Assembly (NCBI GenBank): GCA_008632985.1 | Contig: QPGO01000357.1 | Location: 1-41,579, forward strand | Direction of reading: 5' to 3' | DNA from: Psammoneis japonica | Lineage: Eukaryota | Length of the DNA stretch: 41,579 bases | Part shown: in pieces, positions 424 through 31,437 of the stretch | Layout of the letters: each line of letters starts with the position of its first letter | How positions within the stretch are numbered: position 1 is the first letter of the stretch | Translations under genes and position numbers: made by a program | The notes under the pieces: model-generated | Told to the model about the DNA's origin: nothing | Databases searched by the model: none | What the model saw: only the letters and a program-made list of their open reading frames with translations

Positions 424-621
424 GCAGACATGCTCAAGATGTGGCACCCTTGCTCTTCGGCCTCCTCTTTCTTTGCTCCTGTTTTCACTTTGTGCCATTC
501 TGTTGTTCTTCTTGGCCAAGATTGGCCCCACATTGTCGCATCCACCGCCATGTCCGTTGCTCTCCCTCCCTCCCAACCAGATGCCACTGTCCTCACATCT
601 TCCAAGAAGGTGAGGGCCATC

Positions 622-1055
622 TGCCCCATGCATGCACTGGGCGCTGAAAAAGAAGATGTGTCACGACTTTGTCGTTGTGAAAATCATGAGCCAGTTTAGA
701 GTAGAAAAAGTGGGATCGTGCGAATGGGGAATCTTGCCAAATCCCTGTTCGCTCGCATTTGGATCGCATCAAATCGATCGTGCGCTCGCATTGTGGATCG
801 TGCAAATCAAGCCATCACGCACCACACACGAGTGATGTCATCGTGTGGAATCACACTGCCATCGTTGGCCAGATGACGGGCTAGTGTGCTTCACACGGAC
901 GCTCTCTTAGCATCCTTCTGGAATTGCTGAAGACCTAGAGCCACGCCCTCCTGTGGTCGTGCTTCCCAGGTACGTGTTAACAATACTACGTTGCCACGTA
1001 CAAGAGGCTTATGCACGGTCTCGCCGTGTTGTCCAGTAACGAGGCATGCTGCACA
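622..1055 (-). repeat. 3' LTR (last few bases and TSD damaged)
   Basis: Matches 5442-5874 and the reverse complement of 2806-3241. On the minus strand it begins TGTGCA right after the PPT catgggggag. Confidence 0.92.
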
Positions 1056-1092
1056 CTCCCCCATGATCAGGGCCGTTAAGTGACAGAATGTC

Positions 1093-2396
1093 TTACTGGT
1101 GATAGGGTACAATCTGCCGTAGTTTATACGTATCTATCAGCGCTCCGTTCTGGATACGCAACGTGCCGTTGTCATATACACGGACAACTCTGGCGGGTCC
1201 TGCATAGCTGTCAGAACCGTATTTAGAGGATTGTTCCTGTTTGATAAGTACCAATTGCCCTACGGTATATTGATACTCTTTGCGTTTCTGATTTTCACGC
1301 TTGTTGTTTAAGTGGATAAGCTTCTGCTTTCTGGTTTCTATGTGCTTCCACTTAGCACGATAGGCAATAGATAAAACCGCATCGCGTCCGAAGACCAATT
1401 GCATGGGACTTGCACGCGTGGTCGTGTGTACCGTAGCTCTAATAGCGAAGGCTACTGCGGAGAGGATGCCACTCCATGGGTCATCTTCATCCAGTTCCAT
1501 ATCCTGTACTGAAAAGGAACGTACCATGTTACCAAGTGTCTGGTGTACACGTTCCACTATGGCATTCGCCTGTGGATTCCGTTTACTTATGGGTTTCTTC
1601 AAAATCCCATGGTCATTTTTAATCATCTGGCTGAATTCTGCCATAAATTCTGTCCCACGGTCATTTGGCTAAATATATAAATTCTGCCATAAATTCTGTC
1701 CCACGGTCATAAACCACCTGGGTTGGCCACGGATATCTGCATAGCCACGTTTGTTCTACGACGTTTGCTACGACGTCTGCGCGTTTCGTAGACACTTCTT
1801 TAATCTCGAACCACCCGGTTGCTGGGTCAATCATTGTGACCGCCCATAATTGCAAAGTGTCCTTTCCGTGTCTTTTAATTTTATATGGCCCTATCATATC
1901 TATGCACAGAGTCTCCCATGGAATTATCTCGGCGACCTTTTCTGGTAGCTTCCCATAACGCTGCGTTCGGCGTTTTGTCTTCTGACATCGATCGCACTTA
2001 AAGGACGTAGAATGCACCGTAGACCTCATACTAGGCCAGTAGAAGTGCTGGGCAATAGATATTTCCGGACGTGTCTCACCTGGATGACACAGTGTCTCGT
2101 GGCACCATTCAGTTAGCGGAACCTGCAATGACTGTGGTACTGCGATTTTGTCCTTATGACCCTCCCCCACGATACGCGCGAATGGAGTAGTCGGACGAGT
2201 CCTTAGCTCGTGAGAGCAGGCACTTGTCCTTTTGTTGTTCTTTTTGAATGCGCTTGAAGTTAACAGGCAGATATAGCTCATCTTGAGCGTCTGCATTAAA
2301 GGCTTCATGCAAAGGACGACTCGATGGAGTGTCTTTTACATCCGGATTGGCCTCGGAAGGCAAGCTGGGTGCCAGTCGAAGGCGACTGAGAGCATC
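1093..2396 (-). pseudogene. Gypsy pol 3' part: RNase H end plus integrase (HHCC, D,D-35-E, C-terminal GP motif); frameshifted, mostly TpA-intact
   Basis: Motifs DALSRL, HETLCH...CDRC, LCIDMIGP, YDRGTEF, NPQANAIVERVH, YAGPARVV. Frameshifts near 2155 and at 1634-1710, where a 31-bp duplication plus 15-bp filler hits YDRGTEF. Confidence 0.93.
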
Positions 2397-2805
2397 CTCT
2401 CCGCAGCAGCCTTCGCCATTAGAGCTGCGGCACACACGACCACGCGTGCAAGTCCCATGCAATTGGTCTTTGGATGCAATGCGGTTTTATCTATTGCCCA
2501 TCGTGCTGAGTGGAAGCACATAGAAACCAGAAAGCAGAAGCTCACCCACTTAAACAACAAGCGTGAAAATCAGAAACGCAAAGAGCATCAACATGCCGCA
2601 GGGCAATTGGCACTTGTCAAACAGGAACAATCCTCTAAATGCGGTTCTGACAGCCATGCAGGACCCGCCAGAGTTGTCCGTGCACATGACAACGGCACGT
2701 TGCGCATCCAGAACGGAGCGCTGACAGATGCGCACAATCTACGGCAGATTGCACCCCATCACCAGCAAGACATTCTGTCACTCAACGGCCCTGATCATGG
2801 GGGAG
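2392..2805 (+). pseudogene. Inverted, TpA-hypermutated second copy of the integrase C-terminus plus PPT
   Basis: Gapless match to the reverse complement of 1056-1469; all Tyr codons became His/Cys and the TAA stop became CAA. Confidence 0.95.
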
Positions 2806-3608
2806 TGTGCAGCATGCCTCGTCACTGGACAACACGGCGAGACCGTGCACAAGCCTCTTGCACGTGGCAATGCAGTGTTGTTGACACGCACCTGGGAAGC
2901 ACGACCACAGGAGGGCGTGGCTCCAGGTCTCAGGCAATTCCAGAAGGATGCCAAGAGAGCATCCGTGTGAAGCACACCAGCCCGTCGTCTGGCCAACGAT
3001 GGCAGTGTGATTCCACATGATGACATCACTCGTGCACAGCATGTGATGGCTTGATTCGCACGATCCACAATGCGAACGCACGATCGATTTGATGCGATCC
3101 AAATGCGAACGAACAGGGATTTGGCAAGATTCCCCATTCGCACGATCCCACTTTTTCTACTCTAAACCAGCTCATAATTTTCACAACGACAAAGTCGCAA
3201 CACATCTTCTTTTTCAGCACCTGGCACACACACAGGGCACAGCATTGTTGACACGCACCTGGGAAGCACGACCACAGGAGGGCGTGGCTCCAGGTCTCAG
3301 GCAATTCCAGAAGGATGCTAAGAGAGCATCCGTGTGAAGCACACCAACCCGTTGTCTGGCCCACGATGGTGGCGTGATTCCACACGATGACATCACTCGT
3401 GCATGGCGCGTGATGGCTTGATTCGCACGATCCACAATGCGAACGCACGATCGATTTGATGCGATCCAAATGCGAGCGAATGGGGATTTGGCAAGATTCC
3501 CCATTCGCACAATCCCACTTTTTATGCTCTAAACTGGCTCACAATTTTCACAACGACAAAGTTGCAACGCATCTTCTTGTTCAGCGCCCAGTGCATGCAT
3601 GGGGCACA
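2806..3608 (+). repeat. Full LTR (2806-3241) followed head-to-tail by a 5'-truncated LTR (3242-3608)
   Basis: TGTGC...GCACA termini on the full copy; the second copy restarts about 68 bp inside the LTR and ends ggggcaca at 3608. Confidence 0.92.
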
Positions 3609-3611
3609 GTG

Positions 3612-5350
3612 ACAGTGTGTGTCGACTGTCGAGCAGAGCACTGCTGGCGCCACTGTCTGGCAGTGCCTCAATGGTTTGAGTCTTGCCCTTGCCATGTTTG
3701 GCATTCACAGCCATGAACAAGATTGGAGCAAGATGAGTCTTTTTAACTCGTTTGCGGGATTGGCCTACAACACGTGTACGATGGCAACTCAATTGTTCAT
3801 CAGTGCATTCACCCAATGTGTTGAAATTACCTGCATCGTGTCGGCAAGTGTCGAGTCTTCGGAATCACTTAAGTTGAGGTCGCGGAAGTGATTGAGCTCC
3901 TCCTCGCGTGCCTTGCGCTTTTTCTGAGCGTTGGGAAAGAACTCCTCGACCTTCGGTCCGTTGAGAGCATCGGTGTCTTCCTCATTCCGAGGTTTTACAT
4001 TGGGCTTGCTGCCTCCATCACTGGAATGTCCAGTCTTGACACGTTTCACGTGGTTGTTCGGTTGGGTCGTGATCAACGACTCACAATTGTCCGTTCTACG
4101 TCCCCGCTTGCGTGAAACCCTGGCATGTGGGTCGCGGTTACCTTCGGCAAGCTCGACCTGCTCGGTGCGCTTGCAGAACTGTGCAAATTTGGCGACAGCA
4201 TGCGCCAACGGATCAAAAGTCTGTAACATCATGAACTTCTGCCATGCGTTCGGCACACCGTACAGTCTGCTCACGTTAACATGTGCTGGGGGTGCATGCC
4301 GAATTTCAGCACATGTTGTAGAGAGGGTGCACGTCATCGCTTCTTGGCACAAATGCACGTGTCTTTGCCACATGAGCAGCATGAGTGATGAGAAATGCGT
4401 AGATTGAAATCTTGTGCTTCGCCCTCACGACTCATGACGCTTTTGGGCCACGTTCGCGCGGCGCCACCACTGTAATTTTTGAAAAAAACCCATGGCTGCC
4501 TTCATCAATTCTTTGGTCCTGCCAGGTGCAAAGAAGCCCAGGACCACTTCTCAGAGGCACAAAATGGTCAATGAGGGCATTTGCAGTTGTTGCAAGTGCA
4601 GTCTTGATGATTTCATCGCCTCAAACTAGTCGCATCATCGACACATCACGGATTCGCGACATGGTCTGTCGGTCTGTCAGTCCATCTGTTGACAGGGAAG
4701 TCTGACCTTCGTCCGAGGGGTCAGGCCGGATTTTCAGTGTGTGTTGCAGAGAGGGTGCATGTTAAAAAGCATGTGTCAACGTGAGCAGACTGTGCTCGAA
4801 CATGTCGCATGGTTCGTCATCAGGTGATGGTGCCGGTGCTTCTCCATCCGCCGTCACAGGTGGAAACTGAGAGACACAGCCGTCAACTTCAACAGCCCTC
4901 GCGACATGGTCACGAGCAGAAACCTCTGCGGGCTTGCGCATGAAGCGCCTGAGACAACGCTTCTGCAATGGTGCCGCCCCATGTGGGAAGATGCTTTCCT
5001 TTAGCTTCGCGACGCATGCTGCGTGCGCAGCGTTGGTTTGGGATGCCTGCTTCTCAGCGGCATTGTTGAATGACGTCAGAGCATCGCCCTGAAGCAGGTC
5101 ACGCACAAGGGCAAATTTCGCTGGCCCGGTCGTGATGTTTTGTCCATCATGCACGCGTTCCACGTTGCGCAGAAAGATCAGGAGTGTCTCGCATGTAGCC
5201 ACAGAAAGGCACGGGATGCCCATCTCGTGCGTTGGACCATCCGCATCAGTGGGGTTGTTACGTAGCTTGAACGTCTGGTGCTCGCCCTGCTGCAGCTCTT
5301 TCTTCTCCGGCCGTGCGAACAGAATCGGCGGCTCAACCCGCTTCTTCATG
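3612..5350 (-). pseudogene. Gypsy gag and N-terminal half of the aspartic protease, interrupted by a MITE
   Basis: MKKRVEPPILFARP...LLQGDALTSF...RRFMRKP gag signature. Removing 4263-4792 restores ...FE-YGVPNAWQKFM. The protease active site reads ALPDSGAS (expected ALLDSGAS). Confidence 0.85.
4263..4792. mobile_element. 530-bp non-autonomous Tc1/mariner-type MITE inserted in gag
   Basis: 25-bp TIRs CAGTCTGCTCACGTT(A/G)ACA.... TSD is TA at 4261-4262 and TG (converted TA) at 4793-4794. Excision restores the gag frame. Confidence 0.88.
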
Positions 5351-5441
5351 GTCGTTTTGAGATTTGTCGGTCCTGCCAACATTTCGTAGTTTCGTTTCTG
5401 TAGATTTCGTTGCCTCGCACAATGTGCGGGAGTGATGTTGC

Positions 5442-5874
5442 TGTGCCCCATGCATGCACCAGGCGCTGAAAAAGAAGATGTGTTACGACTTTGTCGTTGA
5501 GAAAATTGTGAGCTAGTTTGGAGTAGAAAAAGTGGGATCGTGCGAGGGAATCTTGCCAAATCCCCATTCGTTCGCATTTGGATCGCATCAAATCGATCGT
5601 GCGCTTGCATTGTGGATCGTGTGAATCAAGCCATCACGCGCTGTGCACGAGTGATGTCATCGTGTGGAATCACACTGCCATCGTTGGCCAGATGACGGGC
5701 TAGTGTGCTTCACACGGATGCTCTCTTAGCATCCTTCTGGAATTGCCCAAGACCTGGAGCCACGCCCTCCTGTGGTCGTGCTTCCCAGGTGCGTGTTGAC
5801 AACACTGCGTTGCCACGTGCAAGAGGCTTGTGCACGGTCTCGCCGTGTTGTCCAGTGACGAGGCACACTGCACA
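5442..5874 (-). repeat. 5' LTR
   Basis: TGTGC...GCACA termini; lies directly upstream of the gag leader; matches the other three LTR copies. Confidence 0.92.
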
Positions 5875-5876
5875 TC

Positions 5877-7150
5877 TTCATGGAGACCAAACACCATGAA
5901 GCTTTCAACTTGATCGCCTTTGGCGTCAAGGACAACCAATTTGATGATGTGTTGCTTGTGAACAACTCCAAGTTGATGCTTCGTTCTGAGTGGAAAACGA
6001 AGGTTCGCACTGTCAAGTTCTGGAACACCGGACTGGATGGGCTTGACCAAAAGGAGCTCTGCAAGCAAGTTGGCAACCAAGCTTGCTCCTGGGTTTGCCT
6101 CCACCTTGCAGAGACAAATGACTTTGGTTGCGACACTCTCTTCCAAACCAAGAAGAACTCCGATGGAGAGATTGTTTCAAAGCTCACAGCTGTTCACCTT
6201 GAGCAGACATTTGATGTCATGGTGCAGCACCATCACCAGACAGGCGGTCATCTAAAGCTTGCCCGAACATTCAATGACATCAAGAAAAAATGCTGCAATG
6301 TGACAGAACAGCTGGTTTCCCACTGCATTGATCTGTGCCCCACTTGCAGCAAGACCCAGCCATCTGTGGCAAGAGTTGAGGGGGCTCGTGTCCCAATCAT
6401 GAGCCGGAGTTTTTGTGACAGGTTTCAGATGGACCTTGTTGACTGCCGAAAGGACCCTCACCAGTTCTGCCCAGGGGACCCCAACTCCCCAACCATGAAG
6501 TGGCTCATGGTTTTGAAAGACCACTGCACCAGGTTGCTCTGGACCTCTGCCATTCCCTCCAAGGAAGCAAAGTGGGTTGCCAAGGAGTTCTGCCACATTT
6601 GTTCTTTGATCGGCTGCCCCCTTGCAAGCCACACAGACAATGGGAAGGAGCTCACAGCAGAGCAAGTGACTGAAGCCATCCAGGAGCTCAACCCGTGCTG
6701 CAGCACTGTCCAGGGTGGTGCCAGAATGCCTTCGCACCAGGGTTCTGTGGAGCACTCAAACCACCCAATTAAATCAGCCATCGCTTTGCTTGTCAAGGAA
6801 GAGATCCACAAGGGAAGCACCAATGCATCATGGGTGACGGGGCACCCCAAGGCAATGGCGTCTCTCAATGCAACTGCCAACAAGGGAAAAAGCGAGTGCT
6901 CTGCCTGCTTCCATGTCTTTGGCATGGAGTTCCATGAACTCCTGACAACCGTTCCCCTTGCAAACCTGCAAAGTGCCAAGACTGTTGCTGAGAGATGTGC
7001 CATCATTGGTGGAGACTACAAGAGGAAGATGCTGGCAATGGGCAAGGTCACTGAAGAAGAGATTGCTGCTGTTGTTTCCAGCAAAATTGGTCCATCAAAT
7101 CTCTCAGCCACTGACTCTGTTGCTTCAGTGGGTGATCCTCCTCCATCATT
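5877..7150 (+). pseudogene. Ginger/KRBA2-like integrase (HHCC plus DDE core), TpA-hypermutated
   Basis: HHQTGGH...CPTC; FQMDLVD; VLKDHCTR; HTDNGKEL; RMPSHQGSVEHSN; almost no Tyr and excess Cys/His. Confidence 0.85.
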
Positions 7151-7159
7151 TGGAAATGT

Positions 7160-7393
7160 GTGCATTTGGCGCAATTGGCTTTTTCCAAATCCGTTTTTTG
7201 CCAAATCGAAGGGCAAGTGCACACTTTGCATGTATTTTTGGGTGCACACTCACCTTTCGATTTTCGAAACGATCAAAATTGAAGGAGTTAATTGCACTAA
7301 ACTGCGCAGAACATCGGCCTCTCGCGTGATGAAAAGCAGAGCACCTGGAGCTGGAACAGGCCTGCAGGCAATCTCGCTGCCAACTTCCACGCA
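7160..7393. mobile_element. Possible ~234-bp insertion in the Ginger ORF
   Basis: Non-coding-looking stretch flanked by a gaaatgt direct repeat (7153-7159, 7394-7400); no convincing TIR. Confidence 0.3.
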
Positions 7394-8059
7394 GAAATGT
7401 CATCCCCCTCTCCCAAAAAATTGAACGCCTCTGCATCTGCAGTCACTTTGTTCTCACCAATTGAGTCTGGCAAAAACAATGGAGAGCAACCCGCATTGCC
7501 ACACTCACCAGCAGACACGGAACAACCAACCCCCCCCCCCCCCCCCCCCCTCCTTCGATTGCAGCCAAGGCATCACCAAACAATGTGAAGGCACCCCTGT
7601 CCAATCCAACCAGTGTGCTGTCCAAGCCGTGTGCATCCAAGGAATCACCAACCAATGCAGAGCCACCCAAAGCCAATTCAATTGCTGTGCTGCCCAAATT
7701 GGTCACAGCCAAGGAATCACCCACTGACGTGGAGGTTGAAAAAGATTCACAAACCACAGTTGGGCTGCCAACAGAATTGCCAACAGATGTGGAGCCATCC
7801 AAAGCCGGGGTTGCCAAGGCACAAGCAAAGCTGGAGCAATTTTTTTCTGGCTGCAACACTGAAGACACAAGTTGCCAAAAAAAATTTTTGGTCAAAGTTT
7901 CACTTCAACCGTTGGATGGCTTTGTCAAGCACAAGACACCGTGTGACCCTGGATGACGGCACCACACCAAAGTGTGTTCATCCACAACTTGATTGCCCCA
8001 GGTGCTGCCTGTCGGGCAAACCTTTCAAGGTGGCATGCTGTGACAACGATCACATCCAC

Positions 8060-8990
8060 AACAGCAGGAGCAGAAGCCAATGGTTTGACACAAAATTTGT
8101 CTCAAGTTTTGCACAGTTGCTTGCACACGAGGGTCACCCGCAAAACACGAGGATGCTTCATGTCATGTGTGGTGCAACGTCCTTGGCTCAACTTCAAGGG
8201 TCATTGAACAGTTGACCAATCTCGCTTTCAGGGTCAGTCACAACTCTCTGCTCCGCAGCCAACCAGTCATCACATTTTGCTGTGCTTAAATTTTTGTTGC
8301 CGGAAAAAAATGTTCAAGTTTTTGAGGGCCTTGGGTGCAAACTCACCACCTGGAATGACGAAATCATGTGCGCTCTCAAGAGGTGCGGCCTTGTGTCCAA
8401 GGAATCTCTCAAGCAAGATGTGTCTTGGAACATGAAGAGAATGGAACTCCACCAGCAGCCAAGAATTGTCATTCAGGTGCATGGAAAGTGCAAAGAGGAG
8501 AGGTGTCAGCAGCACAAACGGACACCCACAGCTGCGGCCCTCGTGCTTGCGTTTTACTTTGGGACATTCTGTCACCCAGGACAATGCCCTTGTCCTTGCA
8601 ATTGATGTCTCCCGAAAACTGTTGCCTTGCTGTGATGAACAAGCATTGTGATCTTTTGGAAAATGATCAATCAAAAGATTTGCAATTTCTCCGAAAAGTC
8701 AAGGGTGTCACCATTGACTGGGAAGAAGAAGAGCATCATCCCAAAGTTCCCAACTCTAACATTGTCACGATTGACCAAGAAGTTTCCACAAAAAACACTT
8801 CAACAGATGATCCCACAGTGCCTCAAAGGATGCGTTGTGGATTGTGCCTTGACAAGGAGCTTCCGGTGGACACGGTGCTTCATTGCTGCCAACTGACTTT
8901 GCATCTGCACTGTGCACTGGGCTGCCTTAACTCTGACAGTTTGTGCCCCTGCTGCCACTCAGAAATTGACGAGGCTTGCCTCGAAAAACT
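8060..8990 (+). pseudogene. Ulp1/C48-like cysteine protease remnant followed by a RING-like Cys cluster, within the Ginger element
   Basis: HFAVLKF...VQVFEGL...QTDTHSCGPRAC fits the H...D/E...QxDxxxCG layout; CGLC...CCQLTLHLHC...CPCC; several frameshifts. Confidence 0.6.
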
Positions 8991-10315
8991 CAATGACGAC
9001 AACGTCAAGTTGCTTCTGGCGGGGTCTGGAGCAGAAGCATCCTCACAGGTTCAAGATTGTGGGAAGCCTGGAAAACTGTCAGTTGTCCACAAGACAGAAA
9101 GTGTCTCGGACAGCTCAGAAAGGAAGGAAGACACAGATGACAAGTTGTCGCAGTCACCCCACTGTTGCGAGAAAAAAAATCCCAAGGGCTCATTTCTGAA
9201 AACAGGAACACAAATGAGGTTCAAAAGTTGCAGCTCTTTTTGGAAAGAACGCAAAGCCACAATTGCCGGATTCCACAGAAACACGGTGGTGACCTCTGAA
9301 GGCGACTGGTGGTTGGGATTCAAGAGTGAAAAGGAGGAAGATGAAACCATTGAAGAGTGGGAAAAAGTTGATGTGCATGATCCAGCAATTGCCTTGGAGC
9401 CACCACCAGGTGAACGACCCATTTGCATGTCATTGTGACTGTGGCATGTGTGCGTTGACAAGGAATTGCAAGAGTGGTTGCGGGAGGCAAAGTTGAAGCG
9501 ACCAACAATTTATGACCAACTCATTGCCAAAACAACAAAGGAATGTGGCGAAGGCAGTGCCTGGGCCATTGCCAAACCAACTGGTGTCGCAGCGAAACGC
9601 CAAACAATTGCCAAGATGAAGGACTTGGGAACCATGCCTGAACCCAAAACAGGACCTCCATGCAAGACATGGAAGCTGGATGGTGGCACACCAACCAGTG
9701 ATTTGCTCCCAAACGACGATCATCAAAACCGCAGAAACAAGAGAGCACACAGTGACAAACTCGCTAAAGATCATCAAGAACGCGGTCACAAGAAAATGAA
9801 GGTGCGATTTGAAAAAAGTTGTGCTCTTGTTCCCGGCTGTTTGGCCGGAATGAAGGTGGACAAAAGAGATCGCAACAAAGGCAACCATCTTGGAATCATT
9901 GGTGTGGTGCATGAACAACATCCAGAGAGCATGTTGGTCAAGGTGGTGACAGAAAGGTGGCATCACATCCACTCGCAACAAACCAAGAAACATTCAAGCA
10001 AGAGATTGCAGCCCTTTGCAGAACCAGCATGTGCCCGTCACCAAAGCACTTGACAAGTGGCGACAACAAGTCAGGGACGGCACGTTCGATGAATCATCTT
10101 GTCCAAAGACAAGTTTGAACAAGGCCCACAAGAACAGCACAGGAGACCAACCCAACAACATTGATCAAAAACAGGGTGCGGTTGTCACATGTTGCTTTTC
10201 ATTGCGAGGCAAACCCCCTCAACAAAATTTCAACTTTTTTCATCATTTTAACTTTAGCGCGACGTTGTCACAAGACTGAATGGAAAGTCTCGACACAAAC
10301 AGTTGACAAAAATCG

Positions 10316-12330: not shown

Positions 12331-12855
12331 CTTGGGATCTGGGGTGCTGTTCTGTGCTTGGCAGACAGCTGTGAGGAGAGGAGCTGTGAGAGCTCTTGAC
12401 TCGGCTGGAAATGGCCCCAGGTCTTCAGAAAGGGACACTTCCAAAACAGCTGTTCAGAATGGTGACGATTCGAGATCAGGGCAAAAACAGAAGGTCGTGA
12501 GATGTCATCTGCGACAAAATTCTTGTCACCGAAGATGTGATCGCCATTTGGGTTGGCATGCGCACGACGCAGCAATTCACAAAAAACCCATGTGAGTCGT
12601 TGCCCTTGTGGCGACTTCGAAGTGGCTTTGTTTGTCCGGTTGACTGATGCCATGTCATCTGAGTGACTTCTGACAACCAGATGCAGGGGGACGACGCCGT
12701 CCCGGAAGAACTCATGCACCTGTTCTGGAGTCACATTCTCCATGCGAACAACAATGGCTGCCAACTTGAGCATGATGACAACAAACTCCGCTGTGTTGAC
12801 ATGGACACAGTCCGGATCCGTTGACTTCCGCAGCCTGAGACCCTTTGCGATTTTT

Positions 12856-13245
12856 GACGCGTTCCAGCCCCAGGTGGGACTCCATGTGACATTGGGCCCG
12901 TAGAATTCCATGTGCGAGCTCCGCAGTTGAAGAATTTAATTGATGGACACATTTGTCTTCAACATCAAATGAACGGCCAAGTTTGTGGTGCAATTGTGCC
13001 TCTTGCCACTCGACGTTTTTGCAAATGCGCCTGCCCCACGCGATTCTTAAGACATTCTAGAATCGCGCTGTAACAAAAAATGTCAAAAGTTGTTGGACGG
13101 ATCGCTCAACAAGTGCACCGTAAAATGACACAAAATGTCGAAAAATTCACGTAGAAATCTGCGTGCGCGACATGCGACGTGATTCAAAAAACTGTCGATG
13201 TCACAGTTCAGTGGCACGAGGTCCCACCTAGACCTGGAACGCGTC
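12856..13245. mobile_element. 390-bp MITE (GACGCGTTCCAG termini), TpA-converted copy, inserted in RNase H
   Basis: ~25-bp TIR; 4-bp TSD tttt; excision restores WRPKIAKGLRL; second copy at 24237-24627. Confidence 0.92.
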
Positions 13246-16187: not shown

Positions 16188-18143
16188 TTAGGATGCACCA
16201 TCTGGGCCCTTTCCTGGGACAAATTCGAGCCCCTGGGTGTCCCGGACAAATTGGCAAAAGGCGTCTCGCTTTGCCTCCAGAATCTTTGACACCAATGATG
16301 GGTGTGGCTTTGGGCAGTTAGGGAACTTGCAGCAGCATCCTTCAGCACAAAAATGCATGCAAACACGTTCCTCCTGGTCTGATCCGTTCTTCTCATAAAA
16401 GACTGGACAGGCAGGAGGGCGCCTTGTTGTTCCCGAAAAAGTGAGCATGCCCATTGCCTTGTAGAGCTCGGCCGCACTGTCGGTCGTGTCCTCCGCACGC
16501 GGCTTCTTCTTAGGAGGTTGACCAGACTTGGTCTTTTCATCCTGTTTGTCTCCAGCAGGGGGCAACACAGAACTCCCGAGAGGGACAAGGGCCAATGCAG
16601 ACGCTTCAGCAAAGGCGAGAGGCTTGCCCCGTGTGATGGCCGTGTTGAGATCCGCGATGAGGGACTTTGCCAGAGCACGAGCATCCTTCGCAATCTGATG
16701 GCTCAGTGGGCGCTCGGTTTCAACCGCCTGGCGGTGCAATGGAGAGTCCCCAATCTCGAAATGAACCTTGACAATGGTCTGGAAATCATCCATGACACTG
16801 GCAACGACTGGTTTCGGGTCCTCAAGGTTTTTGAGCCACGCACGGCCAGGATGCGACCAAAGGACCTTCGCGCATGCATCCAATGATTTCCACAACTCGG
16901 CATTGTCGAAGTCTTTGATCCAACAGCCAAAGACACAACGAAAGTTGCACAGTGCCGACCACAGATTGCTGGTGGCATCCATCCTCCCTTGGACACACAG
17001 GTCGCTTGCCTTTGCGTCGTCTGGGATCTTGCAGTCCGATCTGTCAGCAAGCACCCAATGGAGCGTCCTCCCTTCCTCCTCAAGGCTGGCAAAAGAAGAT
17101 GATGCAGTCTGGGGCGGAAGGAAGGGGAGGATTGACAGCTTTGTGCGGTGAGAAGCCTGGCTGTGCTGCGGAGGCTCCGCAACCACGTCAAAGCCGCAGA
17201 AACAATCCGCGCAGGCTTTGTTGACGACGGTGCACTTGTAGTCGACTCCGGCATCAAGACCACTGTCGCCACGAGCCGAAGCCACAACAGCCATCTTAAC
17301 AAGGTCCGCAAGGTCTCGGTTGGCGTTGGCTGCCGATGTGTCTTGTGGGATCTTGACTGCACTGTCCGCAAGCTCCCTGACAATGACCATGGGCGGGTCT
17401 TCCGGACCGGCACCAGCAGTCGCTCGGAACGCACATGGAGACCAGCGGTGACCAACATCACGCGCCCTCAACTTCTGATCTGACTCCTTCTTCGAATCCT
17501 GGCATGAGACATTGATGGTGTGGTTCGGGACCAGGCCGTTGGCGCCCTGAGCTGGAGCGGCGGGAGCTTGTGCATGCGCAGGCTCTTCACCACCGAGCTG
17601 CCTCCAAGTCTCATTCGCAAAGGCATCCATCGTGCTCTTGACTAGAGCACACCAATCCGTGAGAGGCTGGAGCATCTGTGCATCGTCATCATCAAGATTG
17701 CAGACCTCCAAACCGGAGAATTTGTCGATGACAGCAAAGCCAGTCTGCTCAAACACAGGGCCGCCTTCCGCGACGGAGACAGAAGCGTTGTGCTGCAGCA
17801 ACCAGTCGATGCCCTCAGCCCATGCCGCTCCAAGCGGAAAGTCAGCAGCAAGGGATGCTGGGGGGTTTGCCGGGTCGAAGTCAACAGGAAGAGCAACGCC
17901 CACAGGGATTGGTGGGAAAAGCGGGAGCGCAACAATGGCAGGGCGCTCAGCCGGTCCAGTGGGATTCCCAAAATGGAGACGACCCACCGACGCAGGGTCA
18001 CTGGTCCCGTCGTTGCCGACAGGACCGTCGGTTTCGTCAGGGCTCAGTTCGCACTTGGGCAGGTGGCAAGCATCCACGGCGCCTTGGGGAACTAAAGTGG
18101 TGACATGGCCTTGGAAACGAGTCCAACGGCCTGCAGCAGGCAT
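16188..18143 (-). pseudogene. ORF1 (gag-like) of the YR retroelement, with C-terminal CCCH-like zinc motif; open but TpA-hypermutated
   Basis: Long ORF upstream of RT ending in CMHF...C...C...H. Start placed at ATG 18143 because the TpA-intact paralog (19701-19944) has TAG stops in the upstream extension called in the ORF track. Confidence 0.75.
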
Positions 18144-18561
18144 CCCTGCGCAGCCGTCGTTGATGCCACTTTCCTGCGTCTGTGGGCTGTCCGTAGCGAC
18201 GCTGATCCCGCAGAAGCGCGCATTGGAAAACGCGACTCCTGGCACAAGACCTGTGAGAGGCTGCAGGAGGTCCATGCAACTGAGACCGGTGCGACTGGCC
18301 ATCGCGCAAGTGACTCACCTTGCATGAAGGGACTGCGTGGGGTGCACGCAGTGCCGAGTGTGAGCCTGTGGATTGGCTCTGCATGAGTGTCTGTGAGTCA
18401 CACAAAAGACTTGTCTCAGTTGCATGGACCTCCTGCAGCCTCTCGTGGGTCTCATGCTGGGAGTCGCGTTTTCCAATGCGCGCTTCTGCAGGATCAGCGT
18501 CGCTGCGGACAGCCTGCAGACGCAGGAAAGTGGCGTCAACNGACGGCTGCGCAGGGATGCC
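18139..18561. repeat. Fold-back: 18413-18561 is an inverted copy of 18139-18287
   Basis: Direct reverse-complement match of ~150 bp; contains an N at 18541. Confidence 0.9.
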
Positions 18562-19000
18562 CACTGCACTCGCCCCTGTGACAAGGTCGTACGAGTGACA
18601 GAAGGTCCTGCTGCTGGAGATGGACATTTTGAGGCATTTCACATGTGTCCACCAGCGCACCTTCTCGCACACGAAGTGTGACATTTTCGTCGACTTGAAC
18701 AACTGCAGCTGGCCCTGCATGACTGTCGGTGCCCGCCACTGTTCGTCCGTTGTTCTTGCTTGACAAGCACAAGTTGTCCCTTCGTTTGTTGGCACTCTCT
18801 TCTCTTAAAGTTCTCACGCTTGTCATTCAAGCGGAACATTTTCTGCTTTCTGTCTGCGACATGCCTCCACTTGGCACAACAGGCAACAGATGAACTTGTG
18901 TTGCGTCCGAAGACTGTCTGCATCAGAGTTGCCTTGGCAGTGGTCTGCAGCCCTGCAGTTGTACGTACAGCAAAGGTCACGGCAGAAAGTTTCAATCCAA
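18562..19000 (-). pseudogene. Diverged Gypsy integrase C-terminal fragment with PPT-like end
   Basis: LSAVTFAVRTT...MQTVFGRN...KWRHVADRKQK...NDKRENFKRRE...GQLVLVKQEQ, homologous to the 1093-1469 protein. Confidence 0.8.
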
Positions 19001-19700: not shown

Positions 19701-19944
19701 TTTCCTGCGTCTGTGGGCTGTCCGTAGCGACGCTGATCCCGCAGAAGCGCGTATTAGAAAACGCGAATCCTAGTATAAGACCTACGAGAGGCTACAGGAG
19801 GTCCATACAACTGAGACCGGCGCGACTGGCCATCGCGCAAGTGACTCACCTTGTATGAAGGGACTGCGTAGGGTGTACGCAGTGCCGAGTATGAGCCTGT
19901 GGATTGGCTCCGCATGAGTGTCTATAAGTCATACAAAAAGACTT
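19701..19944. repeat. TpA-intact direct copy of the YR-element leader 18170-18412
   Basis: Colinear alignment with 15 TpA->TG/CA, 3 CpG transitions, 1 other substitution and 1 indel. Confidence 0.95.
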
Positions 19945-22237: not shown

Positions 22238-24236
22238 CCCCTTCCTCCTTCGGCGGCACATGTGCTGGTGGAGGCTGTTCTTCTGGTGGCATGGCAATCA
22301 AAGCACGAATGGTCGGTTGGTGCAGTGCCACGTCGACATCATAAAACAACAGGTCAATGGGTGGTGCGTGCAATGTGTGTCAGTCTTGCCTGCATGTGGA
22401 AAAAACACTGAATTGCTCTGTGGGAAATTTTCTGCTTTTTTCATGCTTTTTTAACTTTTGCGTGACGTCATCGTAATGCGGGGGTTGCATGTTCCAAAGC
22501 TCCGATTGGTTCCACTGGGCTCTGGGTGAGTCTCAATCACCTCCAGATGGAGGAGGTTCTGCTTGGGAATGATCATCCTGAGAAAAGTCATCACCACACC
22601 TCCTGTCGTGGATGCTCCTCTGCCATGCCCGCGCCCATGCAAGGAGCATCGACCAGTGCATTGGTGCTCGTTGATCCTGTGCCTTTGTTGTTCCAAGCAA
22701 AATCGCCTTGCTCTGCAAAAAAAAAGGCCCGCTTGCATCCACAGCAGTCGGAGCACGAGTGAGATTGTTTTGCCTTGTTGTTGCATTGTGCTTGATTACA
22801 GCACTCAATGACAAATGGCGGCAATGTCATCCACGGTCAATTTTAGATCCGATGAAAATGGGCCCAAACTTCAGGATTGCAAATCTGCTGTGTTTGGGTC
22901 ACAACAGCGGGTTTGACGGCACCGGCCAACATGGAAGAGACTGCTGTGTCAGGAACGGCAGGTGGGTGTGCGTCAGGTGGTGTGGGGGATGAAGAACGGG
23001 AGGTCGTCATGGTCAAGTCGTCGAAACACGTGATGTTTTGGTGTGTGCGCTGTCTTCCAAAAAGTGCGCTTCCGCACCCTTGGTTTTTGGTGGTTGGAGT
23101 TTTAGGGGAGAATGTGGCTCAGGATTTTTCCTGCTGCTGTTGGCATTTGTGTGCAAATGCACAAATGAACGCAAGAACATTTGTGCAAAAATGTGATGAA
23201 CAAGACACAAACTGCCACGCAACCATGACATCACCACATTCTCCCCCACCACAGGGGTGTGTCTGCTGGTTTTGCCATTTGCTGCGGTGTGAGTGACAGA
23301 CACACAGGAGAGAGACGGCGCGTGCATGCGCGTGCGGCACAAGTGTGGCACACGTGATGCGAGGAGGAGTCAGTGACCATGGCGGTGTCAAGTGTCAATC
23401 ACAACCTCCTCCAGCTGTTTCTCTGTGCACTTCAACAATGCAACAGGGTTCAGATGACTCCCATGATTTGTGATTGTTTGAAAGTGACAATGATTGTTTG
23501 AAAGTGACAATCGAAACACTCGGCATTTCGCTGCTTCGACTTGGTTCCATGAATGAGGATGACAGCCATCAGAAGTCAGAATCGAGCTCTTGTTGTGGAT
23601 CTGGACTTCTCGAGCAAACTCATCAGCACGTCTGCCACGTTTGTTTGGGCTGCTCACTGGCGCACTTTTTGATTGGCTGCTTGCTGCCCTTCTTCTTGCT
23701 GGTCTTGTTGCTGTCTCCAAACAATGCCAAATCTGGAAAGATGTTGGTTTTGCTGCTTGGTGCTGAAACAACTGGCAACATTTTGCCCAGCTGTGGGGGC
23801 TTGTGTCTCTGCAAGGGGCTGCGGCAGTTTTCGGAACACCCCTGCTGCACAACAGCCTTGGCAATTCAAGCATCATGCACAGCACATCTTGGCACATCCC
23901 CCATCAGTTGTCTCTTGTTGGAACCAAACATGGTGCACCACCCAGTTTTGTGTTTTGCTGTGGATGGTTGTCTTTGTGTTCATGTGCTTGCCATTTTGCT
24001 GGCAACCAGCCAAGGTGCAACTCATGTGCACACATCATCAACCAGAACAAGAAACAAGGATCATGGCAACAGCAAGGGAGGTTCCATTCAATGTGGTGTG
24101 ACAGTCAATGCCAGGGAAGAAGAGGATGCTTGGAGTGATGATGGCTTGCCTTGCGACCTTCTTGTGAAACCTGGCAAGAGTCAAAAGTGAGAGGACACCA
24201 GTGGTTGCCTTCTTGGGTGAGTTGAGCTTTGGATGC

Positions 24237-24627
24237 GACGCGTTCCAGCCCTAGGTGGGACTCCGTGTGACATTGGGCCCGTAGAATTCTACGTGCGAGC
24301 TCCGTAGTACGAGAATTTAATTAATGGATATATTTATCTTCAACATCAAATAAACGCCCAAGTTTGTGGTACAATTATGCCTCTTACCACTCGACGTTTT
24401 TGCAACTTCGCCTGCCCTACGCGATTCTAGAGACATTATAGAATCGCGCTGTAACAAAAAATGTCAAAAGTTGTTGGACGGATCGCTCAATAAGTGTACC
24501 GTAAAATGACACAAAATATCGAAAAAAATCACGTAGAAATCTACGTGCGCGACATACGACGAGACTCAAAAAACTGTCGATGTCACAGTTCAGCAGTGCG
24601 AGGTCCCACCTAGACCTGGAACGCGTC
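24237..24627. mobile_element. 391-bp MITE, largely TpA-intact copy of 12856-13245
   Basis: Same TIRs; 4-bp TSD atgc at 24233-24236 and 24628-24631. Confidence 0.93.
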
Positions 24628-26261: not shown

Positions 26262-29014
26262 ATGTCTTCCAAACGCAACCGTAGTAGTAGCACAGGATCA
26301 GCCCCCAAGAAACGACTAAAAGCAAAAGTTGGAAAACGAGCTACCACCAAGAACGAGACGGACACTGATTTCAAGGCTGTTTCGGTACAGGTTTCACATC
26401 AACGAATTTCTGTAGAACAATCCTTGCAAGAATTGCTACCCAAAGCAAGTCATCCCTCGGCTGTGGTACGCAAATCATGTCTACAGACAATGTTGCAACA
26501 GAATTTGTTACAAGAAAATTCCGTTTCATCGCTGTGGATACCCGTCGTGACCAAGTGTGCCAGTGTCGATGAGGATGAGAGTGTGAGACGGGTGGGATTT
26601 CAAATTTTGCAACAAGAGTGTCTCGAGATATCGCCACATCATTTATCCATTATTCTGGCCTATGTGTCATCCGCCATGGTCCATCTCAATGTGGATATTC
26701 GGTTTCACGGATGCAAACTATTGACGCTCTTTTGTACTAACAACAACCACGTTTTGCGGGATCTGCAGTGCGTCTTTTTACCGCTCTTTCCGAGACTGCT
26801 AAGGGATGCCTCGAGTGTGACCAAGAGCGATTACAACAAGACCAATAAGTATGGTGAAAAATCCAAAAAGAAAAAGAGCACATTGGAAGATCGGTTATCG
26901 ATTGTGTTGGAGGCGCTCGTGGCGTTTCTAAAAGCATCGTTTTCACAACAACAAGCTTTGGCAGAGATGAGAGAATCATTTCCAATCGAATTTCGTACCG
27001 CTTCATCCAACGGTGTATTCGTATCTCCTTCGCGAGCAGTTTCTACAATAGATACACCAATTCAGAGCATGAGTGACTTTTGCAACATGTTGCAGCAACA
27101 ACAACAAGAATATTCTTTGGAAACGAAAAGTCGAGACTTGCCGTTTCCAACCGACTGCGTGTCGATCCTGGAACGACTCTGTGACGTGTTGATTGAGTTA
27201 CAACAACAGTCGAACAAGTCTTCTCCATCGCACCTATTGCTTGTACTGGAATCGGTTCGCATTCTGTGGAAACAAATCGTATCCTTGGAAAAGTTGTCGG
27301 GACGTTTGCTCAAGCTCTTGTTGGAACTCTATAATCCCATTCACGTGGGTAATTCTGCAAACATGGCATTATTACAAGTCAATACATTGTTGGTTTGTCT
27401 CTTGGTGGAACTTGGGCGTGATCAAAATAGCAACAAGGATTGGATGCATCCCGTTGTTTCGGTTTGTACTAGTACTACACAGAATTCGAGTAGTTTCGAG
27501 GCTATTGAAACCTTGTTGGGAGATTGGAACCCAAACGACAACGAGAACGACGACAACGACGACACTACGAGTAGTAGTGCCATGTGTCACGAGGTGTTTC
27601 AATCCGTGTGTGATTTGTACTTTTCTCATGACCAAGAAACAACGGTGGATCCATTGTCTTCCCGCAAAGCCGTAAAACTCGTGCTGGGTATAATCACTCG
27701 ATACAACAACGATTCGAATGACAATGTAAACGAAAAGTCTCGGAAGCGATTCATTGCCTTGACGAGAAATGTCATTTCAGGTTTACCAAAGTATATCACA
27801 GCATGGGACACATGTTATTCGGACGGTTCGACTGTGGTATGGAAGTTCTTGTTGGATGCGATACGAAAGCACGACTTGACCGAAAAGGAGAAAAATACAA
27901 TCATGACGAAGGATTTGATGCAAATATTGTCAACGGATACTTCTCGTTGTCTTTTTAAAGGTACGAAAAAGAAGCAACCAATTTTATTTGTACGGTATCC
28001 TGAGCATATCCAGCGTATAGTGGTGGCATTCCTCGGGACGCTAATTCAGTCTCATCACGAGGGCAACGCAGACACTATTGTACGGGGACTGGCCAAGTCG
28101 TGTCAACCACAAGCTACTACGCTGAGTCCTATGATTTGCGATTATGTGTTTGACGTGATGCACACGGTCCGACGATGCGTGTCTATGCAAACGTATTTGG
28201 AATTCGTCATGGACAGTGTGACTATCAAGGGCACGAAACAGAATGACAATCCAGACAAATGTATCTCGTGCCAAGCAATCATGAAACACGACGAGTCATT
28301 CAAGCGTGCGTGCCGTGCCCTTGTTGAATGTGGGAGTGCCTCCAAGGTTTTGATGGCTCTTGAGGAAGTCTTGTTGAGCTGGATTAGCAGTACGGAATCC
28401 TCTTGTCTCGATTCGATTCGAACCAAGCGGGCGGCAATTCTAGTGTTTGCGAGCTTTTCTCTACACCTCAACAGAGATGACTCGTCTGTGTTTCAAGTTC
28501 TGCCACATCTCTATGATCCCACAGCAAATGGCGTTTTTGTGACTTGCTTTCGAAGTTTATGTTTGCTAGTGAAAATGCCAGCAGTAGCAATAGCCAGTTT
28601 GACGCTCTGATTCGGCCCATCTTGGTGAGAAAATGACAGTCTCCTGAATTCGCATGCATGCTACTGTTTGTCGCATTTGCCGTTCTCATGTACATTGCCT
28701 CGTTTTCATAGGTCTTGATCAACTGCGAGCCTCGTTTACTATCGGCCATCTTTCAAGAAGCTGCCAATAGAATTGTTGGCTATGAGAAACATACGGACGA
28801 AGCAGAGGCATTCTCGTCCGATACGCTTCTCTTGCGAGCATTGATTAAACTGATTCCGTCACCAGAGATTGTCAGTGTGGTTCGACAAGAGTCGGAGCAA
28901 CTGAAAAGAAATTGTCAAACGATTGAGTCCCACATTGCAAACTGTGGATCTCGGAACGATCACCTCGGCGGGAACCTCCGGACAAGACTCGATGCGATTG
29001 TTGGATTTTCCTAA
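26262..29014 (+). CDS. IPI1: IPI1/TEX10-like Rix1-complex pre-rRNA processing protein; intron 28625-28711; apparent +2 frameshift at ~28535
   Basis: N-terminal KKRLKAKVGKR...NETDTDFKA...Q and SHPSAVVRK...DEDESVRR...SSAMVHLNVDIR match the Ipi1_N pattern. GT-AG intron is conserved in the duplicate. ggcgtttttgtg here versus ggcgtttgtg in the duplicate. Confidence 0.78.
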
Positions 29015-29558
29015 GACACGTAATGGCACCTAACGAATGCAAAGTGTTGCGGCTTCGACTGTGACTGCTTCTACGGCTCAAGCAAGCAATAAGTAGAAGG
29101 AGCACCAAATCGCAATGATTGGTGTGTCTACTACCATACTCCTCCTTCGCACTCTGTTGGCGCTGGAGGTGCAGTACGTTTGCTAGGAATGCGAACAATA
29201 CACTACTACTTCTCCGTTCGATGCATCATTTCATACACGTATTTTAACGCACACGACTTTGGTAGGTAAAGACAAAGTGTTCCTACACAAGTCTCTAGTT
29301 GCGGAAAAAATGGATTTCGTTTTGACATCTCATTAAAATAAACAAGAGTGGAGTTTCGATGGTAACGACATATCGCTTTGCGTTGTCCTCCATGCCAATG
29401 TCTGGCACACTGCCAGTTTCCTCTTCCATGGAGATTCTAAAATATAAATGTTGGAACAACAGGTGTAGTCTAGCAGGTCTGGATTTATAATATCGCAGAT
29501 CTCCCTATAGAATTTAGCGCCGTCTATCTTGACGTCCATCGCCTGTTTCCCGTGTTCT

Positions 29559-31175
29559 CATTGTTGGTTTGTCTCTTGGTGGAACTTGGGCGTGATCAAA
29601 ATAGCAACAAGGATTGGATGCATCCCGTTGTTTCGTTTTGTACTTGTACTACACAGAATTCGAGTAGTTTCGAGGCTATTGAAACCTTGTTGGGAGATTG
29701 GAACCCAAACGACAACGACGACGACAACACTACGAGTAGTAGTGCCATGTGTCACAAGGTGTTTCAATCCGTGTGTGATTTGTACTTTTCTCATGACCAA
29801 GAAACAACGGTGGATCCATTGTCTTCCCGCAAAGCCGTAAAACTCGTGCTGGGTATAATCACTCGATACAACGATTCGAATGACAATGTAAATGAAAAGT
29901 CTCGGAAGCGATTCATTGCCTTGACGAGAAATGTCATTATAGGTTTACCAAAGTATATCGCAACATGGGAAACATCCTATTTGGACGATTCCACTGTGGT
30001 ATGGAAGTTCTTGTTGGATACGATACGAAAGCACGACTTGACCGAAAAGGAGAAAAGTACAATCATGACGAAGGATCTGATGCAAATCTTGTCGACGGAT
30101 ACTTCTCGTTGTCTTTTTAAAGGTACAAAAAAGAAGCAACCAATGTTATTTGTACGGTATCCTGGGCATATCCAGCGTGTAGTGGTGGCATTCCTCGGGA
30201 CGCTAATTCAGTCTCACGAGGGCAACGCAGACACTATTTATTGTACGGGGACTCGCCAAGTCGTGTCAACCACAAGCTACTGCGCTGAGTCCTATGATTT
30301 GCGATTATGTGTTTGACGTGATGCACACGGTCCGACGATGCGTGTCTATGCAAACGTATTTGGAATTCGTCATGGACAGTGTGACTATCAAGGGAACGAA
30401 AAAAGATGACGATCCAGACGAATGTATCTCGTGCCAAGCAATCATGAAACACGACGAGTCATTCAAGCGTGCATGCCGTGCCCTTGTTGAATGTGGGAGT
30501 GCCTCCAAGGTTTTAATGGCTCTTGAGGAAGTCTTGTCGAGCTGGATTAGCAATACGGAACCCTCGTGTTTCGACTCGATTCGAACCAAGAGAGCGGCAA
30601 TCCTAGTGTTTGCGAGTTTTTCTCTACACCTCAACAGAGACGACTCGTCTGTGTTTGAAGTGCTGCCACATCTCTATGATCCCACAATAAGTGGCGTTTG
30701 TGACTTGCTTTCGAAGTTCATGTTTGCGAGTGAAAATGCCAGCAATAGCGATAGCCAGTTTGACGCTCTGATTCGGCCAATCATGGTGAGAAAATGGCAG
30801 TCTCCTGAATTCGCATGCATGCTACTGTTTGTCGCATTTGCCGTTCTCATGTACATTGCCTCGTTTTCATAGGTCTTGATCAACTGCGAGCCTCGTTTAC
30901 TATCGGCCATCTTTCAAGAAGCTGCCAATAGAATTGTGGGCTATGAGAAACATGTGGACGAAGCAGAGGCATCGTCGTCCGATACGCTTCTCTTGCGAGC
31001 ATTGATTGAACTGATTCCGTCACCAAGGATTGTCAGTGTGGTTCGACAAGAGTCGGAGGAACTGAAAAGACATTGTCAAACGATTGAGTCCCACATTGCA
31101 AACAGTGGATCTCGGAACGATCACCTCGGCGGGAACCTCCGGACAAGACTTGATGCGATTGTTGGATTTTCCTAG
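29559..31175 (+). pseudogene. 5'-truncated tandem duplicate of the IPI1-like gene (copy of 27385 onward); intron 30786-30872; +4 frameshift at ~30238
   Basis: High identity to 27385-29014, continuing into the 3' flank; actatttattgta versus actattgta. Confidence 0.9.
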
Positions 31176-31437
31176 TACACATACACTGTAATGTCACCCA
31201 ACGAATGCAAATTTTGTATCTTTGACCTGTGACTGCTTCTATGGCTCAAGCAAGCAATGAGTCGACGGAGCACCAAATCGCAATGATTTGTGTATCACGG
31301 CGGGTTTCATGGCTTATTTGCGCGCAATGCGGGCAAAGGCGGAGAGCGTCAGAAGAAGATAGAGTCTTCTATCATCATCATTTCGATACCTCTCCTCGCG
31401 TCCATACCATTCGCTACACTGCTTACAAACGTCAAGA

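Follow-up and report, generated by a model that had tools for sequence, protein, structure and literature searches.

The family of LTR retrotransposons described here has lost most of its TpA dinucleotides: ∼85% of these sites were converted to CpA or TpG once the copies had inserted, independently in each copy. The underlying process is real and is a variant of a kind that has been described once, to which this family adds testable rules. We analysed 41,579 nucleotides from the diatom Psammoneis japonica (contig QPGO01000357.1 of assembly GCA_008632985.1; this whole stretch is referred to as the window), together with copies of the family from elsewhere in the genome. We hold the descriptive account with great confidence, namely the polarity of the change, its specificity for TpA, its timing after insertion, the independence of the copies, the coupling within TATA, the outlying behaviour of one LTR (copy B), and the existence of spared islands with low CpG decay.

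Across the whole window the ratio of observed to expected TA is 0.32, with values mostly of 0-0.3 in transposon DNA as against 0.3-0.9 in the gene region at 25.5-37.5 kb, and an excess of CA/TG parallels the TA deficit along the window. The element of interest is a 5251-bp insertion on the minus strand, with LTR copy D (5444..5872) as its 5′ LTR and LTR copy A (622..1053), which keeps TA in its inner half, as its 3′ LTR. It is bounded by a 4-bp target-site duplication whose two copies (left, 5873..5876; right, 618..621) both read GATG on the element strand. Copy D is followed, as in other copies, by the gag-side internal region (3619..5443, minus strand, placed by alignment to other copies), whose ORF gave no Pfam match. 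The integrase region (1054..2396, minus strand) contains an ORF at 1661-2335 with Integrase_H2C2 and rve domains, and a TA-retaining island at 960..2340 has a TA ratio of 0.7-1.05 as against 0-0.3 in most adjoining transposon DNA. The RT/RNase H part is absent, and LTR copies B and C stand in its place. Copy B (2808..3239, plus strand) lies within a local duplicate, in inverted orientation, of this element's 3′ end; the duplicate also comprises the integrase tail and polypurine tract (2392..2807, plus strand, with the polypurine tract at 2799-2805). Rare variants at LTR columns 17, 190 and 201, present in 5, 4 and 9 of 120 copies, are common to B, A and D, and the integrase tail of the duplicate has one rare variant in common with A (2/29 rows). 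Copy C (3245..3606, plus strand) stands in tandem behind B and is without its first 70 bp; at columns 190 and 201 it lacks the variants of A, B and D, and it derives from another copy of the family.

The family belongs to the Ty3/gypsy LTR retrotransposons, as established by the domain order protease, RT, RNase H, integrase that Pfam analysis revealed on the reading frames of another copy. A polypurine tract precedes the 3′ LTRs. Among 13 two-LTR elements, the window's included, the 4-bp target-site duplication was exact in 11, had one mismatch in one and was lacking in one. The LTR so defined is 432 bp long and ends in TGCA...GGCA.

The window holds several other elements. The gag side of the D-A element is interrupted by a 530-bp insert with 26-bp inverted ends (4262-4793), probably a small DNA transposon. 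At 5859-10050 there is another integrase-like ORF (weak rve) with long frames, a TA ratio near 0 and a CpG ratio of 0.2-0.5, which may be an older or more fully silenced element. An element with long inverted ends occupies 18132-18932 and 19701-19944; its stretch at 18564-18932 shows 66% likeness to the LTR family's integrase tail, and 16 TA are kept in the 19701 copy and one in the 18170 copy. Two copies of a 390-bp MITE-like repeat, one converted and the other not, lie at 12855-13245 and 24236-24627. We found no tRNA genes in the window.

The polarity of the change was read from an alignment of 120 LTRs, taken from 100 stretches plus the window (four short matches were left out and one near-duplicate pair was kept). 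The 3228 YR cells at 28 LTR sites comprised 1322 CA, 1249 TG, 648 TA and 9 CG, and since single columns hold TA, CA and TG, which is explicable only by a TA start, the direction of conversion is from TA. In the full set of 64 rows and 359 sites, from which five near-duplicate rows had been dropped, the two outcomes numbered 6292 CA and 6544 TG. Transitions from A:T to G:C are nearly confined to TpA, with both CA and TG outcomes present: outside the islands of 28 mosaic rows, A>G per strand was 0.43 at TpA, 0.020 at ApA, 0.013 at CpA and 0.009 at GpA, and transversions amounted to about 0.2%. C>T at CpA was just 0.4-1.1%; TpA was lost, not gained. At 162 isolated sites the flanking bases carried distinct weights, with C (1.71) and T (1.42) ahead of G (0.72) and A (0.57) at +1, C (1.26) and G (1.23) ahead of A (0.62) at +2, and A at 1.45 at -2.

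The proposal, made from the sequence alone, that conversion is largely independent in each copy was borne out. Of the 350 sites converted in both members of 20 LTR pairs from the same element or locus, 223 have the same outcome, as against 220.4 by chance, which places conversion after insertion. Copy B and its template A differ at TA sites, and together with the chance-level agreement of LTR pairs this indicates that B was converted after its duplication. We saw no hidden clades with common converted states besides near-duplicates. Dating by LTR pairs is useless in this family.

Several individual copies and sites deserve mention. An older copy (L031, on C27), with 8% divergence at other sites and an LTR CpG loss of 31-45%, has about the same TA share as young copies. 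Some TA sites resist, LTR column 358 being just 21% converted. Two copies, L007 (C380) and L015/L111 (C133), have 253 of 257 converted states in common, and an internal tandem duplicate has states in common with its source; their likeness reflects either duplication after conversion or allelic contigs. At 27385-31296 a 1.74-kb tandem duplicate, ∼95% identical and overlapping an Ipi1/TEX10-like gene, keeps TA at 57 of 69 sites, which argues, as one test, that repetition alone is no trigger.

Strand choice at neighbouring sites

Conversion consists mostly of scattered events on both strands, with paired events at TATA and one long single-strand sweep. The sequence-only reading had supposed that conversion is sometimes strand-coordinated; this stands for copy B, an outlier, and for TATA, but not for the tract at the LTR end from which it had been drawn, and there is no family-wide processivity. 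The expected excess of long same-strand runs did not appear, the mean longest run being 4.39 as against 4.53 under the null, and family-wide tests of run length and over-dispersion were likewise null. Strand correlation was about zero (r) at 21-600 nt, and at 7-20 nt it was slight (r 0.03, z 2.9 without outlier rows) and confined to the newer rows (z 3.08, against 0.69 in the other half). Once the top two rows are set aside, the variance of per-row strand z is 0.83.

At short range the outcome depends on spacing. True TATA steps, in which the sites are 2 nt apart, were resolved on the same strand with an odds ratio of 4.07 (13 of 15 site pairs; 4.12 and 3.52 when the data are split into halves). 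The same-strand share was 0.643, compared with 0.47-0.49 in memory-less context simulations (paired p 0.0007-0.005), whose weights are additive, so that unmodelled higher-order context could yield part of this coupling. One TATA in a second, unrelated family, the MITE-like repeat, behaved in the same way, with 26+17 same-strand and 10+5 opposite-strand outcomes (OR 8.84, p 3.6e-4); these 43 of 58 were counted by hand among the 100 copies listed of 332 matches, and the copies may be related. This repeat has hundreds of copies in the genome, as judged from the 332 matches to one motif, and TATA is kept in 37 of the 100 listed. TA-N-TA sites (3 nt) tend to be resolved on opposite strands (OR 0.35, model 0.78; 26 of 31 pairs), an effect weaker than that at TATA (paired p 0.02-0.06 against simulation), and at a spacing of 4 nt no coupling is seen (OR 0.89).

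Copy B is the lone real single-strand sweep. Over 850 bp it has 43 CA and 11 TG where 27.9 CA are expected (p 1.2e-6). The bias is seen in the LTR (20 CA:5 TG, or 17:4 without four tract sites, p 0.0025) and also in the integrase tail, whose sites had played no part in the original suggestion (23 CA:6 TG, p 6.5e-4), and it is lacking in the adjoining copy C (9:10). Among 62 rows B is the most strand-biased (0/3000 permutations) and the next row reaches p 0.052, so that the family has one extreme and one borderline outlier, and proves long single-strand sweeps to be rare.

The borderline row (L038/L117, on C50) is a nested element with 130 CA and 191 TG (family-wise p 0.052), and an inverted arm beside an island in L106 (C346) is also a borderline strand outlier (16:6, z 2.93). 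These two and copy B suggested post hoc that inverted arms are a source of strand bias, an idea we rejected when a prediction fixed beforehand failed on one new case (29:26, z 0.54). In L049/L103 (C26), LTR halves placed head to head form a 430-bp palindrome in which the first 10 converted sites are identical between the arms.

TA-rich islands and the agent of conversion

Among the 56 rows of at least 1.5 kb, 28 are mosaics with TA-rich islands, 25 have none and three are TA-rich throughout. Islands measure 250-1880 bp (median 970), have fairly sharp edges and are concentrated near the start of protease/RT, a hotspot that is spared in 23 of the 43-45 rows covering it and for which CpG density, at 4-8 per 100 bp as elsewhere, offers no obvious explanation. 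The contrast in TA between islands and their surroundings is circular by definition, but those in CpG, A:T and transversions are not: within the same element region CpG transitions were 1.7% inside and 6.7% outside, and other A:T transitions 0.46% and 2.1%. Off-context A>G was fourfold higher outside than inside. Transversions were 0.40% inside and 0.15% outside in the larger set and equal in smaller sets, which argues that the islands are not younger patches; the larger set was compared without four rows, three that are TA-rich throughout and one old copy. Islands of the 28 mosaic rows had about twice the frequency of transversions and of non-CpG C>T found outside them. CpG is lost far more slowly than TpA. 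If CpG decay is taken as a proxy for methylation, the islands may be patches that escaped methylation-linked silencing; diatom transposons bear DNMT5-dependent CG methylation, according to PMC9998398.

The best overall explanation, which we consider somewhat probable, is that a host DNA adenine deaminase acts on silenced transposon chromatin in many small visits. A host process would rewrite TpA to TpG in chromosomal transposon copies after their insertion, by A to G on one strand, which appears as CpA when the other strand is struck. Its target would be silenced, CpG-methylated DNA, with patches of ∼1 kb that escape silencing being spared, and many small independent events on either strand would continue until ∼85% of sites are gone. 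At TATA, the A's of one strand, spaced two bases apart, would often be taken in a single visit, and rarely, as in copy B, a whole exposed strand would be swept. The likeliest agent would be a DNA adenine deaminase of TadA/ADAT type, the resulting inosine being read as G. Methylation as the targeting mark, double events in a single visit and the identity of the deaminase are the parts of this account that we infer.

The genome contains an ADAT2-like gene, though such genes are general; among the 120 relatives listed for it, the three that carry an organism name all belong to diatoms. Our search for deaminase domains returned five matches, all looking like ordinary tRNA/dCMP deaminases. A 491-aa frame (L124:316-1791) joins a deaminase domain to an apparent 2-oxoglutarate oxygenase, judging by motifs. 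The preference for C at +1 and for C or G at +2 is loosely like the UACG substrate of TadA (PMC10586758). A more specific form of the deaminase explanation can be offered tentatively, as a possibility: a natural diatom defence that tracks transposon chromatin bearing CpG methylation, removes most TpA shortly after insertion, leaves unmethylated patches untouched, pairs TATA events on the same strand and occasionally sweeps a whole strand.

The order of off-context rates, ApA > CpA > GpA, suits the W-A motif of a polymerase at least as well as it suits the Y-A preference of TadA8e. It is one ground for considering error-prone patch repair of methylated DNA, in which a low-fidelity, pol eta-like polymerase puts G opposite T at TpA. 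Patch repair would agree with the fourfold excess of off-context A>G outside islands, with the coincidence in location with CpG decay and with the weak same-strand correlation at 7-20 nt and none farther, but that correlation is confined to the newer rows. The preference of pol eta for TpA over ApA is roughly 2-fold, far below the ∼45-fold by which TpA exceeds ApA in rate here, and conversion has reached 85% saturation at 0.2% transversions. We judge patch repair rather unlikely.

A second alternative makes thymine the target, in that a T modified within the TpA steps of silenced DNA would mispair with G. From the letters alone A>G cannot be told from T>C on the other strand, the context is strictly TpA, and the 3-nt opposite-strand coupling is something for which a deaminase working on one strand does not account. 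The flank preferences, however, read sensibly from the A, and we know of no such modified T at TpA in diatoms; this explanation appears improbable.

Classical RIP polarity (CA/TG to TA), or an origin of the islands in gene conversion by young copies or in assembly polishing, would suit the fairly sharp island edges and their clustering at one element position. It is very improbable given that TA, CA and TG in one column need a TA start, that the TA ratio is near 1 in TA-rich stretches, and that the islands are not younger, their transversions being equal or higher. A-to-I editing of the element's RNA ahead of reverse transcription, for which the preference of ADAR for U before A might speak (Mettrop et al., bioRxiv 10.64898/2026.01.13.699255), is highly implausible, as both strands are struck equally, a non-retro MITE family is also converted, and the paired LTRs of an insertion differ independently of each other, which refutes it unless later DNA events dominate.

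The tract at the LTR end

The initial observation concerned the ends of the four LTR copies, from which one ancestral (TA)5 run and termini of the form TGTAC...GTACA had been reconstructed, together with conversion that is sometimes processive and can turn (TA)n into (CA)n microsatellites. The four strings quoted are present in the window and are the 3′ ends of the LTRs. Their collapse to (TA)5 proved an over-collapse, and the proposed ancestral run never existed. In the 120-LTR alignment the three states TA, CA and TG occur only at the first, third and fifth steps of the tract; the second and fourth steps, and the one following GGG, read CA in 115/118, 112/118 and 116/118 copies, with TA at the second step in a single copy of 118. 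The tract in B (3221..3239, plus strand) has four three-state TA sites, at LTR columns 417, 420, 424 and 428, amid fixed CA steps. A genome-wide search with a pattern fitting both forms of the tract found three copies, all TACATACATA, and no (TA)5. Nor do the termini TGTGC...GCACA go back to TGTAC...GTACA: the target-site duplications set the LTR ends two bases inward, so that the outer TG and CA lie beyond the LTR, and the inner CAs are invariant (111/111 copies at the 5′ end). Collapsing every CA/TG to TA overshoots.

The "six consecutive" TA to CA changes in B come to three, the other three sites being fixed CA. In the 107 copies converted at all three variable tract sites, the eight outcomes are distributed as independence predicts (chi2 4.24, df 4, p 0.37); all-CA was found in 7 copies, with 5.2 expected, and TG-TG-TG, which A, C and D show, was the commonest outcome (30 vs 24.6 expected). 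The growth of (CA)n microsatellites from (TA)n is possible but minor, since one true (TA)4 tract became (CA)4 in 1 of 46 copies; pure (TG)4 occurred in 3 of 46. A pattern search of the genome gave 121 LTR ends, of which 100 were listed, and a looser pattern gave 208, again with 100 listed; no lengthened CA run was seen among the 100 listed of the 208. Although copy B is strand-biased, TATA coupling exists and TA does stand at the second step of one copy, the reconstruction as a whole, taken with generally processive strand sweeps that build (CA)n microsatellites, is scarcely credible in view of the fixed CA at three of the six sites, the real TACATACATA copies, the independence of the tract sites, the lack of any run-length excess and the rarity of pure (CA)4.

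Comparison with known systems

As an element, the insertion is an ordinary member of the Ty3/gypsy (Metaviridae-type) group, with which it has in common TG...CA LTRs, a polypurine tract, a 4-bp target-site duplication and the protease-RT-RNase H-integrase order; the copy in the window is rearranged.

With RIP in Neurospora the process shares dinucleotide-specific transitions that ruin transposon copies after insertion, but it affects the opposite base pair in the opposite direction, and the C to T change at CpA, with gain of TpA, that marks RIP was not seen here. In RIP a cluster normally consists of C>T changes throughout or of G>A changes throughout (PMC7296669), whereas outcomes here are mixed and lack one-strand clustering, there being no strand correlation beyond 20 nt. 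In contrast to RIP, there was also no sign of a trigger by repetition, in view of the TA kept in the tandem duplicate (57/69) and the TATA kept in MITE copies (37 of the 100 listed).

TadA/ADAT2 and the adenine base editors resemble the present process in the A to G change and in the preference for T (U) at -1, for C at +1 and for either G or C at +2. The A at -2/-3 and the coupling at 2 nt and 3 nt were not found described in the TadA text consulted, and a deaminase is here a candidate.

The closest parallel comes from Bigelowiella natans, in which integrated NCLDV and virophage DNA undergoes hypermutation restricted to TpA (Mettrop et al., bioRxiv 10.64898/2026.01.13.699255). This preprint is the only report of the TpA signature that we found, and diatoms are nowhere mentioned in it; our literature search, with subscription papers mostly outside its coverage, found no diatom report. 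In both systems TpA goes to TpG or CpA in chromosomal DNA, with long-term loss of TpA and gain of CpA/TpG, and the change is confined to foreign or mobile sequence (here judged from the TA ratio, in the window only). In Bigelowiella the signature was measured directly, with an ongoing de novo rate raised ∼1000-fold in some lines, and an ADAT2-type deaminase is the proposed agent; our evidence is sequence inference, in contrast to these direct rates. The present case differs in its host, a diatom, in its targets, multicopy LTR elements and MITEs, and in extent, with 85% conversion compared with a 1.8-fold depletion. The present family, which is young and numbers over 120 LTR copies, adds what the preprint text consulted lacks: a flank preference, a link to CpG decay, spared islands, proof of the rarity of long single-strand sweeps, and strand coupling, the last with the spacing rule of same strand at 2 nt, opposite strands at 3 nt and no coupling at 4 nt. 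Any candidate enzyme must reproduce the flank, spacing, CpG and sweep rules, which makes the question testable in vitro and by knockouts. If the proposed diatom defence is real, then together with Bigelowiella it would make A-to-G DNA editing a form of genome defence in two branches of SAR.
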